From Escherichia coli (GTDB lineage: Bacteria; Pseudomonadota; Gammaproteobacteria; Enterobacterales; Enterobacteriaceae), in NCBI RefSeq assembly GCF_036507355.1, contig NZ_AP027877.1: a stretch of DNA of 64,000 nucleotides; one strand, written 5' to 3'. A program made the position numbers and the translations under genes. Positions within the stretch are counted from its first letter, which is position 1; every line of letters starts with the position of its first letter. This document shows, piece after piece, positions 33,267-46,050 of this stretch. The notes below the pieces were generated by a model. It did not search any database, was not told where the DNA came from, and saw only the letters and a program-made list of their open reading frames with translations.

Positions 33267-33782
<516 letters not shown>

Positions 33783-33789
33783 CACTAAC

Positions 33790-33815
33790 GCCCGCACATT
33801 GCTGCGGGCTTTTTG
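33790..33815 (+). terminator. Rho-independent terminator after uspF
   Basis: gcccgcacattgctgcgggc followed by ttttt. Confidence 0.7.
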
Positions 33816-33957
33816 ATTCATTTCGCAAATGTGCTGACATTTTCCCCTCTAATCCGTACCATACACGCCACAGTTTTTATATCAGATTTCTTATGCTGGG
33901 CGTTCCGGCATGACGCATACTCTTCTGATGCCATATAACGAATTGAGTCGCTTTTAA

Positions 33958-34010
33958 ATGTCGCAAAATCAAGAAATTAGCAAGAAAGAACAATACAACC
34001 TGAACAAGTA
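33958..34010 (+). pseudogene. ttcC: ttcA 5' remnant (ttcC-like) at the int-distal prophage junction
   Basis: atgtcgcaaaatcaagaaattagcaagaaagaacaatacaacctgaacaag ([17 protein letters not shown]) parallels the start of ttcA at 45115 and contains the shared att core. Confidence 0.65.
33982..34007. repeat. Prophage att core, int-distal copy (direct repeat of 45140..45165)
   Basis: About 26 bp, aagaaagaacaatacaacctgaacaa, occurs again within the start of ttcA next to intR. Confidence 0.75.
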
Positions 34011-34248
34011 AGGGCAAAAATCACAACTATCTGACTCATAAGTGTTTTACTTATTTTTCAATGTGTTAAACATCATCAGCGAGAACAATAAACTACGATA
34101 ATCAACTCTTTTTTTGCCCCTTTTTTGCCCCTTTTGCAGCGTTTTGCCCCATTTTTGCCACAAAAAAAAATTCCAAAACGTCTCAATCAAAGTCAAACCA
34201 ACCGCAGCACGTTCTTGCTTAAGACGTGCTGCGGCATAATCCCAATGA

Positions 34249-34833
34249 TTACTCCCTGACAGGGTTCGTAGGCCACTCAATATCAGGTGCAGTTGATGTA
34301 TCAACACGGTTCAGCAACACCCGATACTTTTTCCAGGCTTCCAGCAATGAGGTTTCTTCCTCCGTTGCGATTTCCAGATCCACAGCATCCTGAAGTGGCG
34401 CAATATGCTCACTGGCTACCTGCATCAGGCTGTTTTTTGTTTCTTCCGCCTCTCGGATCCGGAACAGTTTTTCTGCTTCTGCATCTTTCACCCAGGCTGT
34501 GCCGTTCCACTTCTGAAACTCCCCTTCCGGCGATAACCAGGTAACATTTTCCGGTAACGGACCGAGTTCAGAAATAAATAACGCGTCCCCTGACGCTACG
34601 TCATAAACCGTTTTACCCCGATGGTCTTCAACGAGATGCCACGATGCCTCATCACTGTTGAAAACAGCCACGAAGCCTGCCGGAATATCTGGCGGTGCAA
34701 TATCGGTACTGTTTGCTGGCAGACCTGTATGAGGCGGAATATATGCATCACCTTCACCAATAAATTCATTAGTTCCGGCCAGCAGATTATAAATTTTTAT
34801 GGTCCGTGGTTGTTCACTCATTCTGAATGCCAT
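34249..34833 (-). CDS. tfaR: Phage tail fibre assembly protein
   Basis: 194-aa ORF directly downstream of the tail-fibre remnant; Tfa-like sequence; prophage context. Confidence 0.7.
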
Positions 34834-35737
34834 TATGCAAGCCTCACAATGTAGTTAAATGCGATGTTTTTGACGGTGTTTTCCGCGTTACCCGCAGCGT
34901 TAACGGTGATGGTGTGTCCATGTGAGCCAATCGAAACAGAGTGCGTATGAGCACCAATTCCGACAGTATGTGCGTGAGCACCTGCAGATGCAGCTGTGCC
35001 GCTGACACTATGAGTGTGCGCTCCTGCAGCACTTGTATTCACACTGGCCGCAGACACAACCTTATGTACTGACCCATTTTGTGACTACTGGCTGACTGCT
35101 GATGCGCCTGTGACACTATGAGTATGGTTTCCGGCACTTGCGGCTGTACCGCTCACACTGTGTGTATGTGCCCCGGTGTTATTCGTAGATTTAGTGCCGT
35201 AATCAAACGACGATGTGGTTTTCGTACCCAAATCCGTACTGGATGCGCTGGCGCTGTGGGTGTGCGATTTAATACCGTCCTGTTCCTGAGACAATACGGC
35301 CCGACCACTGGCAGGTTTGCCCTTAATCGTCCAGCCACGCATATCAGGGATCACGCCTGACGGATAAGCGGCTGCAAGTTTCGGGTAAGCAGATTTGTCA
35401 AAAGTTTGCCCCTGCATCAGGGCATAGCCAGACGGAACGGTATCTGATGGCCACGGGATTGGTGCACCGACTGGATAAAACTCTGCAGGAGGATGAGCTG
35501 AGGTGTAAAGCTGCGCCCACGGCGACCAGTTTGCGTCGGTCGTATCCCGTCGTGAACGAATAAATGCCGGAGCATGAGCACCGCTTGTACCACTCCAGCC
35601 GATGAGTAACTCACCTTCGCCAACGGCTGTCATCCCTTTCAGGTGAATGATATTTCCATACGCTGTTGGATATCCGTTGTTATACACCTCGTATAACTCA
35701 AGACCTGTTGCCCCCTGCGTATTGTCTGTCAGCGCGG
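34833..35737 (-). pseudogene. stfR: Side tail fibre gene, C-terminal remnant with an internal frame break
   Basis: Two ORFs (35085..35687 and 34833..35057) in different frames with G-A-H-T-H-S-V-S-G-type repeats typical of tail-fibre C-termini; the N-terminal about 800 codons are absent. Confidence 0.65.
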
Positions 35738-43532: not shown

Positions 43533-43610
43533 AACTTCATAGCTGATTATTAATAATCAACATCGGGCGTCAATTTCAGTCTAACATTGGCGCCTGCCAG
43601 AGGTGATGCG

Positions 43611-43826
43611 ATGGCACAAGTAATCTTTAATGAAGAGTGGATGGTTGAATACGGCCTGATGCTTCGCACTGGTCTGGGGGCCAGACAAATTGAAGCATAC
43701 CGCCAGAACTGTTGGGTGGAGGGCTTCCACTTCAAACGAGTATCTCCTTTAGGTAAGCCAGACAGCAAACGAGGGATTATCTGGTACAACTATCCAAAGA
43801 TAAATCAGTTTATCAAAGACTCATGA
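43611..43826 (+). CDS. xisR: Prophage excisionase
   Basis: 71-aa ORF from the internal ATG ([17 protein letters not shown]…) immediately upstream of the integrase. Confidence 0.7.
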
Positions 43827-43827
43827 T

Positions 43828-45063
43828 ATGTCTAAATTACCAACAGGTGTCGAGATTAGAGGTAGATACATTCGCATCTGGTTCATGTTTCGAGGAAAAC
43901 GATGTCGGGAAACATTAAAAGGCTGGGAGATTACAAACAGTAATATTAAAAAGGCCGGAAATTTAAGAGCGCTGATAGTTCATGAAATAAACTCCGGTGA
44001 ATTTGAGTATTTAAGACGTTTTCCCCAGTCCAGCACTGGGGCAAAAATGGTGACAACGAGAGTCATAAAAACGTTCGGAGAGCTTTGTGATATCTGGACA
44101 AAAATTAAAGAGACAGAGTTAACAACAAACACAATGAAGAAAACGAAATCACAATTAAAAACACTCAGAATAATAATTTGTGAAAGTACCCCGATATCAC
44201 ATATTCGTTATAGCGATATCTTAAACTACCGGAATGAACTGCTGCATGGAGAAACGCTTTACCTGGATAATCCAAGATCCAACAAAAAAGGAAGAACCGT
44301 GCGCACAGTTGATAACTATATCGCCCTGCTCTGTTCGCTGTTGCGTTTTGCGTATCAGTCGGGATTTATATCAACCAAACCATTTGAAGGAGTAAAAAAA
44401 TTACAGCGAAACAGAATAAAGCCTGATCCGTTATCTAAAACAGAATTCAATGCATTAATGGAAAGTGAAAAAGGACAGAGCCAGAACTTGTGGAAATTTG
44501 CCGTTTACTCAGGACTTCGTCACGGGGAACTGGCAGCTCTGGCGTGGGAGGATGTGGATCTCGAAAAGGGAATAGTGAATGTCAGAAGAAACCTGACGAT
44601 ACTTGATATGTTCGGTCCCCCAAAAACAAATGCCGGGATCCGAACAGTAACACTACTGCAGCCTGCTCTTGAAGCACTGAAGGAGCAATACAAACTGACC
44701 GGGCATCATCGCAAAAGCGAAATCACCTTTTATCATCGGGAGTACGGCAGAACCGAAAAGCAAAAACTGCATTTTGTTTTCATGCCCAGGGTGTGTAACG
44801 GAAAACAAAAACCTTATTACTCGGTAAGCAGTTTGGGGGCAAGGTGGAATGCAGCAGTAAAACGTGCTGGTATTCGCCGCCGTAATCCGTACCATACGCG
44901 GCATACTTTTGCCTGCTGGCTGTTGACGGCAGGAGCGAACCCGGCATTTATAGCCAGCCAAATGGGGCATGAAACTGCGCAGATGGTGTATGAAATTTAC
45001 GGTATGTGGATTGATGACATGAACGACGAACAGATAGCCATGTTGAATGCGCGGTTATCGTAG
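43828..45063 (+). CDS. intR: Prophage tyrosine integrase
   Basis: 411-aa ORF with the C-terminal catalytic tyrosine-recombinase region (…HTRHTFACWLLTAGANP…QMGHET…MVYEIY…). Confidence 0.85.
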   Translation: MSKLPTGVEIRGRYIRIWFMFRGKRCRETLKGWEITNSNIKKAGNLRALIVHEINSGEFEYLRRFPQSSTGAKMVTTRVIKTFGELCDIWTKIKETELTTNTMKKTKSQLKTLRIIICESTPISHIRYSDILNYRNELLHGETLYLDNPRSNKKGRTVRTVDNYIALLCSLLRFAYQSGFISTKPFEGVKKLQRNRIKPDPLSKTEFNALMESEKGQSQNLWKFAVYSGLRHGELAALAWEDVDLEKGIVNVRRNLTILDMFGPPKTNAGIRTVTLLQPALEALKEQYKLTGHHRKSEITFYHREYGRTEKQKLHFVFMPRVCNGKQKPYYSVSSLGARWNAAVKRAGIRRRNPYHTRHTFACWLLTAGANPAFIASQMGHETAQMVYEIYGMWIDDMNDEQIAMLNARLS

Positions 45064-45114
45064 TTGCAAAGTTTGCCCCCAATTTGCCCCATTTAGTACC
45101 AGGGAACTGAAATA

Positions 45115-46050
45115 ATGCAAGAAAATCAACAAATTACAAAGAAAGAACAATACAACCTGAACAAATTACAAAAACGCCTGCGTCGTAACGTGGGCGAAGC
45201 CATTGCTGACTTCAATATGATTGAAGAAGGCGATCGCATCATGGTTTGCCTCTCCGGGGGTAAAGACAGCTATACCATGCTGGAGATTCTGCGCAATTTG
45301 CAGCAAAGCGCGCCAATCAATTTTTCGCTGGTGGCTGTTAACCTCGATCAAAAGCAACCGGGCTTCCCGGAACACGTTCTGCCCGAGTATCTTGAAAAGC
45401 TGGGCGTTGAGTACAAGATTGTTGAAGAGAACACTTACGGTATCGTGAAAGAGAAGATTCCAGAGGGCAAAACCACTTGCTCACTGTGTTCTCGGCTACG
45501 TCGCGGTATCCTTTATCGCACCGCAACGGAACTGGGGGCGACGAAGATCGCGCTGGGTCACCATCGTGACGATATCCTGCAAACGCTGTTCTTAAATATG
45601 TTCTACGGCGGCAAGATGAAAGGTATGCCTCCGAAATTGATGAGCGATGATGGCAAACATATCGTGATTCGTCCGCTGGCCTACTGCCGCGAGAAAGATA
45701 TTCAGCGCTTTGCCGATGCAAAAGCGTTCCCGATTATTCCGTGCAACCTGTGCGGTTCACAGCCTAACCTGCAACGTCAGGTGATTGCTGACATGTTGCG
45801 TGACTGGGATAAACGTTATCCGGGGCGTATCGAGACGATGTTCAGCGCGATGCAGAATGTGGTGCCATCGCATCTGTGCGATACCAACCTGTTCGATTTT
45901 AAAGGCATTACCCACGGTTCTGAAGTGGTTAACGGGGGTGATCTGGCGTTTGATCGCGAAGAGATCCCACTACAACCGGCGGGCTGGCAGCCAGAAGAAG
46001 ATGAAAATCAGTTGGATGAGTTACGGCTGAATGTGGTTGAAGTGAAATAA
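45115..46050 (+). CDS. ttcA: tRNA 2-thiocytidine(32) synthetase
   Basis: 311-aa ORF with PP-loop (…[11 protein letters not shown]…) and Cys clusters. Confidence 0.85.
45140..45165. repeat. Prophage att core, int-proximal copy inside the 5' end of ttcA
   Basis: aaagaaagaacaatacaacctgaacaa matches 33982..34007. Confidence 0.75.

Follow-up and report, generated by a model that had tools for sequence, protein, structure and literature searches.

The window, a stretch of 64,000 nucleotides of Escherichia coli DNA (contig NZ_AP027877.1), covers the uspF - ttcA region. A Rac-like prophage remnant of 11 kb is inserted there, in the 5' end of ttcA. The remnant is bounded by two copies of a 26-bp att core (AAGAAAGAACAATACAACCTGAACAA) on the + strand, the left one at 33982-34007, with bacterial DNA to its left and phage DNA from 34008 onwards, and the right one at 45139-45164 within the 5' end of ttcA. 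A repeat search revealed that similarity between the two ends extends beyond the 26-bp identity over 33965-34007 and 45122-45164. In an alignment, the Rac-free strain F690 matches the left junction in its left part and the right junction in its right part, as a direct fusion of the two, and the phage DNA was therefore delimited to 34008 to about 45138. Outside the prophage, a remnant of an int gene is present at 33827-33910 (+ strand), in the interval that separates uspF from the native ttcA start. It shows 76% DNA identity to 44860-44910 and translates to KCADIFPSNPYHTRHSFYIRFLMLGVPA followed by a stop codon, as compared with KRAGIRRRNPYHTRHTFACWLL in the prophage integrase; since it is identical in strain F690, it represents the fixed remains of an earlier integration at this site.

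The gene int (43828-45063, + strand, stop codon 45061-45063) encodes an IntR-like tyrosine integrase of 411 amino acids, of which residues 5-69 (nucleotides 43840-44034) were assigned to the Pfam arm-binding domain Arm-DNA-bind_2 (DUF3596/PF12167). This N-terminal domain was modelled as three strands and a helix with a pLDDT of 88.8, and the nearest solved structure to the core-binding and catalytic part of the protein is that of the Tn1549 integrase. The xisR gene (43611-43826, + strand) specifies a DUF1233 excisionase (Pfam PF06806, E 8.9e-21) that is annotated as YdaQ in phage 683R6; the mechanically called open reading frame begins with a TTG at 43587, and the ATG at 43611 is the likely start of translation. 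The int-distal end of the prophage is occupied by tfaR (34249-34833, - strand), and the phage supplies ttcA with the start codon at 45115-45117 (+ strand). Four imperfect 40-nt direct repeats in the tail-fibre gene region (34947-35178; spacing 42, 108 and 42) presumably represent a repeated peptide motif of the fibre.

Both ends of the prophage contain tandem copies of the motif TTTGCCCC, which occurs outside the core and differs from it. The distal, long-arm array at 34109-34161 (+ strand) begins at a distance of 105 bp from the left core, on the phage side, and consists of five units of about 10.5 bp, each preceded by a T-run, including three exact sequence matches to TTTGCCCC (34113-34120, 34124-34131 and 34143-34150) and the degenerate units TTTGCAGC (34133-34140) and TTTGCCAC (34154-34161), with G-to-G steps of 11, 9, 10 and 11 bp. 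Tandem Repeats Finder reported the same array as 4.8 copies of period 11 at 34111-34159 with the consensus TTTTTGCCCC. The proximal, short-arm site comprises two exact copies of TTTGCCCC (45072-45079 and 45083-45090, + strand), 11 bp apart, that follow the int stop after 8 bp, precede the ttcA ATG and end 48 bp ahead of the right core. All copies in the array and the pair share one orientation, and a repeat search of the window grouped the repeats of both prophage ends into a single family. Exact copies of TTTGCCCC occur seven times on the two strands of the 64 kb, as compared with 2.9 expected, and five of the seven are situated at the prophage ends. The earlier note on this DNA had described tandem repeats about 100 bp inside one att core and a related pair about 45 bp inside the other, and both descriptions were confirmed; its statement that the repeats lie at fixed distances holds true for their presence in both arms and fails for the distances themselves, which are unequal (about 105 bp versus 48 bp). 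It had also remarked that no open reading frame explains the repeats, and we likewise rejected a protein-coding explanation, as the sites are overlapped by mechanically called open reading frames alone and RefSeq annotates no gene over either of them.

Additional sequence features were recorded in the vicinity of the repeats. A candidate IHF site, TTTCAATGTGTTA (34056-34068, + strand), with one mismatch to the consensus WATCAANNNNTTR, lies midway between the left core and the array, and a second candidate, AATCAACAAATTA (45124-45136, + strand), matches the consensus exactly and lies between the proximal pair and the right core. Both assignments are tentative, as the IHF consensus is weak and AATCAACAAATTA also encodes the TtcA N-terminus. 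A counterpart of the distal block that differs by one base, TTTCAATATGTTA, is present in phage phi367 (2883-2895 of its locus L010), and phage PHB10 contains an exact IHF consensus match at the same distance of +49/50 from its core as well as AATCAACAAAATA at the place equivalent to the proximal candidate. An inverted copy of the motif, GGGCAAAAAT (34012-34021), directly adjoins the core within the phage DNA; it was not counted as a site, since O157-type arms have GAGTAAAAAC instead, and it may be a chance occurrence or part of a core-type site. A small or structured RNA at the array was likewise rejected: an Rfam E-value search of 33700-34500 gave no match on the array itself, and the matches in this region were a full-length IS009 (RF02111; 225.8 bits, 34292-34490, - strand) within the tfaR coding sequence and weak CssrB matches on a hairpin. 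This hairpin, with the 11-bp stem CCGCAGCACGT...ACGTGCTGCGG at 34202-34234, is located directly past the tfaR stop on the - strand and is probably the terminator of the late operon, outside the conserved arm.

The conservation of the distal arm was deduced from an alignment of eight elements that share the left junction and differ in the cargo beyond it, the cargo comprising tfaR, ynaM/ydfK (K-12), that of phage Rac-SA53, two sitABCD islands, DUF1076 effector genes (O157 86-24) and IS600. The same stretch from core to array is thus joined to a sitABCD manganese/iron transporter in L002 and L006, to the DUF1076 effector genes in L004 and to IS600 in L005. When invariant columns were counted over seven rows, with omission of the arm that lacks one unit, they amounted to 46 of 53 for the array, 62 of 100 for the spacer and 16 of 70 for the sequence past the array. 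The most diverged arm, that of O157 86-24, shows 69% identity to the window in the spacer, 92% in the array and 41% in the next 70 bp. Homology between the elements stops within a few bases past the array end, and the array accordingly delimits the conserved arm on its outer side, as would be expected at the end of a functional attP. The arm of E. coli 2014C-3599 (L005) lacks exactly one 11-bp unit (alignment columns 172-182), which demonstrates that the number of array units is polymorphic among E. coli. For the proximal arm, the window was compared with three members of an Int clade of about 69% identity: the interval from the int stop to the ttcA ATG is largely rewritten, and TTG.CC and TGCCCC of the two sites belong to the very few positions in it that do not vary.

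The comparison was extended to a set of seven intact or reconstructed attP regions, those of Rac, PHB10, phi367, VT1-Sakai, BR319a, MX560 and BMP-1, with Int identities ranging from 100% to 26%. PHB10, phi367, BMP-1 (BPP-1 type) and BR319a are isolated or induced phages and VT1-Sakai is a prophage. The uninterrupted attP of PHB10 (Int 69%) shows the int stop followed by TTTTGCCCCTAT and TATGCCCCTAT, 11 bp apart, and by a ttcA-like start with the core, and its distal sites are TTTTTTTGCCCCTAT ... TTTTTGCCCCTAA ATTTGCCCCTAT, in an arm whose intervening sequence could not be aligned to that of Rac by eye. In phi367, a 933W-type Stx phage (Int 44%), the proximal sites TGCCCCAgacgTGCCCCAaa are located in the int 3' end and four TGCCCCAA-type units follow about 200 bp downstream. 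In VT1-Sakai (Int 43%), TGTCCCATGTATGCCCCATAA precedes the yehV core, and GTGTCCCATA CATGCCCCATT GATGCCCCATAA are found 105 bp inside the other junction. The Bordetella phage BMP-1 (Int 26%) has TTTGCCCCAAATTCGTCCCAAAG at the proximal position and ATTTGTCCCAAGATTTGTCCCAAG beyond a tRNA-like core. In the two Pseudomonas elements a pair is present on each side of a tRNA-like core, of TGTTCCCA in the phiCTX-like BR319a (Int 31%) and of ATGMCAGC in MX560 (Int 30%). As Int diverges, the motif drifts from TTTGCCCC through TGCCCCAA, TGYCCCAT, TTTGYCCCAA and TGTTCCCA to ATGMCAGC. All seven attPs share one layout, with a tandem pair at the 3' end of int and two to five copies in the same orientation in the far arm.

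The significance of this layout was assessed by counting sequences in which the same 8-mer, with at most one mismatch, occurs as two tandem pairs with 10-12 bp spacing that are at least 60 bp apart. All seven attPs contain such an arrangement. Dinucleotide shuffling of each attP reproduced it in 0-2 of 1000 sequences, and it was absent from all 277 tiles of the window. The arm word was returned for each attP when the most-repeated 8-mer was sought in an unbiased manner; the copy number alone is weakly significant, being reached in 4-5 of 200 shuffles in the six-copy cases and not significant in the cases with two copies in each arm. In phi367, VT1-Sakai and BMP-1 the proximal pair falls within the non-conserved C-terminal tail of the int open reading frame, which argues that it is conserved as DNA, coding or not. 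Such intragenic pairs were located at 2739-2761 of the 933W-type L010, at 2737-2757 of the VT1-Sakai locus L011, at about 2366-2388 of the BPP-1-type L096 and in the int 3' ends of the metagenomic loci L102 and L103; each CCC is read as proline (for instance in RAPDVPQS, VPCMPHKK and DLPQIRPK), and the Int proteins of Rac and PHB10 stop just before the pair.

A profile search detected 2004 clusters (50% identity) of this type of integrase at E<=1e-30. Clear tandem sites at the int 3' end were found in three of eight diverse representatives whose DNA could be retrieved, namely three TGYCCCATC units in L102, GTGCCCCAAAA/ATGCCCCAAAA in L103 and ACGTGCCAT twice in L105; weak pairs recognized by eye in remoter members are individually inseparable from chance. 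A blind test was applied to 18 loci of the family and 959 control tiles, in which a 9-mer had to match itself at 10-12 bp spacing between -75 and +45 of the int stop. A match of at least 8/9 positions was obtained for 6 of the 18 loci and 3.1% of the control tiles (P 1.3e-5), and a match of at least 7/9 for 15 of the 18 loci and 23.7% of the tiles (P 1.6e-7). No pair was detected downstream of int in phiNP, in which an ATPase gene follows int directly and attP probably lies elsewhere. Among 80 IMG/VR loci, nearly all of which end at the int stop codon, L043, L074 and L079 were informative. Taken together, the sites are non-random, they are conserved where their flanks are not, and their layout recurs across the integrase family.

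With a probability of roughly 0.78, we interpret the repeats as arm-type sites that the prophage integrase would contact through its N-terminal domain, since this domain is of the arm-binding kind and the motif recurs in the attPs of relatives. The reading as integrase arm-type sites had been put forward in the earlier note, and it is favoured by comparison, through the arm domain of Int and the two-arm layout in related phages. A lack of the motif in the attP arms of related functional phages would, according to the note, have been evidence to the contrary; these arms were inspected, and the same or a related motif was found in PHB10, phi367, the BMP-1/BPP-1-type phage, BR319a and VT1-Sakai.

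Among the other proteins that might recognize the repeats, the excisionase deserves most attention. XisR might polymerise on helically phased direct repeats in the manner of lambda Xis, Gifsy-1 Xis and 186 Apl, and DUF1233 genes accompany most integrases of the Rac Int family. According to PMC7498355, the sites of recombination directionality factors are typically direct repeats one helical turn apart, and the tripartite Gifsy-1 Xis site (PMC2603039) provides a precedent. Moreover, XisR binds a fragment from the array end of Rac: in the electrophoretic mobility shift assays of Liu et al. (2015; PMC4632033), His-tagged XisR shifted the fragment AttR and did not shift AttM. When the primers given in the supplement were placed by way of the K-12 sequence, AttR corresponded to 33884-34177 of the window and AttM to 34008-34298. 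The assay with AttM, reported in one paper for the tagged protein, is a single negative result. AttM holds the whole array in a central position with at least 100 bp on each side, and the shifted fragment AttR differs by the addition of 33884-34007. As the array is present in both fragments and AttR alone was shifted, XisR needs 33884-34007 or the junction and not the array. The stretch 33884-34007 is made up of bacterial DNA and the core rather than the phage arm, and AAGAAA repeats 11 bp apart (33970 and 33981) occur in or adjoining the core.

The presence of the motif in both arms also speaks against XisR. In lambda, P22 and L5, binding of Xis is restricted to one arm. The DUF1233 excisionase and the PF12167 integrase are co-inherited in six of eight diverse contexts, and this near-constant association means that gene co-occurrence cannot in general separate the two proteins; only BR319a is helpful in this respect, as it keeps the layout of two sites in each arm with no DUF1233 protein among its small early open reading frames. 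We consequently consider it unlikely that the repeats are XisR sites.

A second explanation assigns to the array a mainly structural role, as a curved, phased T-tract that possibly nucleates H-NS, Fis or IHF and shapes the arm or silences the prophage end in the absence of sequence-specific contacts with Int. The array does constitute the strongest TT signal with 10-11-bp phasing in the 64 kb (amplitude 14.8, next 10.1), a parameter-free measure. It also ranks first among the predicted bends, with 76 degrees over 31 bp as compared with a median of 16.6, an estimate that depends on wedge parameters. The proximal pair reached the 99.87th percentile. The feature common to the family, however, is the TGYCCC core at 11-bp spacing and not the T-runs, and in VT1-Sakai, L102 and L105 the sites retain TG(Y)CC, repeated every 11 bp, in the absence of T-tracts. 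Curvature moreover leaves the occurrence of the same word in both arms unexplained. As both word and spacing persist in relatives that have no T-runs, we regard the curvature as something added in the Rac clade rather than as the function that is conserved; it may well be an added feature that need not be an alternative to Int sites, and a purely structural array appears distinctly improbable.

It is very improbable that the repeats are transcription signals, with the pair serving as promoter or operator of ttcA and the array as an UP-like or terminator-associated sequence of the late operon. The pair does lie 25-44 bp upstream of the ttcA ATG, and the hairpin past the tfaR stop is near the array, but consensus scans detected neither a sigma-70-like promoter nor an intrinsic terminator on either site. 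In relatives, the pair is located within the int coding sequence and beside unrelated attB genes (wrbA-type, yehV and tRNAs), and the cargo past the array varies between elements while the array is kept. Equally hard to credit is a functionless, microsatellite-like product of replication slippage with a chance likeness to the pair at the other end, since the loss of exactly one 11-bp unit in 2014C-3599 does indicate that the unit number changes by slippage, but the array is better conserved than its flanks and recurs with integrases that are only 26-69% identical, in arms of otherwise unrelated sequence.

If the repeats are Int arm-type sites, the two prophage ends would join in the circular phage to form one attP of about 250 bp. 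Its predicted order is the int stop, the site pair, about 48 bp with an IHF-like site, the core, about 105 bp with an IHF-like site, and the array of three good and two degenerate units. In the joined sequence, the short-arm sites lie about 64-75 bp and the long-arm sites about 122-163 bp from the core centre. By analogy with the lambda paradigm, each Int protomer would be heterobivalent, with the N-terminal domain on a TTTGCCCC unit and the core-binding and catalytic domains on the ttcA core. The 11-bp spacing would place adjacent N-terminal domains on one face of the helix, and bends at the IHF-like sites, in Rac also at the phased T-runs, might allow the arm-bound protomers to reach the core. 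An Int tetramer could then be held by two sites per arm, and the minimum of two sites in each arm, as observed in three phages, fits one arm site per protomer of the tetramer. XisR would bias the usage of the arm sites and thereby set the direction of recombination. Both the binding of the sites by Int and the entire geometry of the intasome are what we infer from the nucleotide sequences and their comparison.

The arrangement can be compared with that of phage lambda, in which the arm-type sites of attP (P1, P2 and P'1-P'3) are likewise located outside the core, in both arms, and have a sequence unlike that of the core. The copies that adjoin int are in tandem at about 11 bp spacing, comparable to P'1-P'3, and the short P' arm of lambda also adjoins int. 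Further similarities are a long other arm, with the Rac sites about 105-155 bp from the core, an attP of about 250 bp and an Int N-terminal domain composed of three strands and a helix; the candidate IHF sites between arm sites and core would, if real, add to the likeness. On the other hand, the motif is TTTGCCCC in Rac and C/AAGTCACTAT in lambda, and the N-terminal domain belongs to Arm-DNA-bind_2 rather than to the lambda-type Arm-DNA-bind_1. The P2 site of lambda is inverted, whereas the Rac sites all have one orientation. Rac furthermore has two proximal sites instead of three and a contiguous distal array of five units instead of two separated sites, and its array is itself a phased T-tract.

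Short direct repeats near both ends are also a feature of the DR-2 sites of Tn916 and Tn1549, and binding by a beta-sheet N-terminal domain is known from Tn916. These elements differ in being conjugative transposons with loose target specificity, in their motif and in an N-terminal domain of the type Arm-DNA-bind_4. The arrays bound by recombination directionality factors, such as X1-X1.5-X2 of lambda, the tripartite Xis site of Gifsy-1 and the Apl sites of 186, are imperfect direct repeats with one-turn spacing inside attP as well, but they are confined to one arm, whereas the Rac motif occurs in both and the fragment with the array was not bound by XisR.

A further correspondence is with the IntBPP-1 subgroup of integrases, which has been defined by the DUF3596/PF12167 arm-binding domain through classification of proteins, the examples being called putative integrases (Smyshlyaev et al. 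2021; PMC8138268). The window Int carries the defining domain, the named examples from BPP-1 and a Stx2a phage are its homologues, and their relatives share the arm layout described above. In contrast to PMC8138268, which gives no arm sites, the present analysis adds the DNA sites. The subgroup spans the 933W-type and VT1-Sakai Shiga-toxin phages, the Bordetella BPP-1-type phages and the phiCTX-like phages.

Arm-type sites are a textbook class, and the sites of Rac are an ordinary kind of element that leaves the concept of tyrosine integrase action unchanged. A mapping of arm sites for Rac or its integrase subgroup was not found in the searchable literature, a scope that excludes much of the older subscription work, such as that of the 1990s on the phiCTX attP; in published work on Rac, just the 26-bp core and a crude XisR-binding fragment have been defined. 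We therefore put forward, tentatively and with some doubt, that the TGYCCC tandems with 11-bp spacing constitute an unmapped arm-site code common to the whole IntBPP-1 (Arm-DNA-bind_2) subgroup, that two sites in each arm represent one site per protomer of the tetramer, and that the bend of the Rac array is built into the DNA, such that part of the bending needs no host factor.

The arm-type sites of an attP determine how far its functional part truly extends and in which direction recombination runs. If the assignment is correct, the functional attP of the Rac-like element would begin at about 45064, include the core and end at about 34161, and a deletion or 'grounding' mutation in this span would be a candidate cause of a non-excising prophage. 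The layout would likewise tell builders of integration vectors how much flanking DNA to retain, and a TGYCCC pair at the int stop together with an array about 100-150 bp past the core could help annotators to place the ends of Stx-converting and related prophages. Among the records consulted, the entry 'Salmonella phage SPF_0923' includes uspF, ompN and other chromosomal genes.
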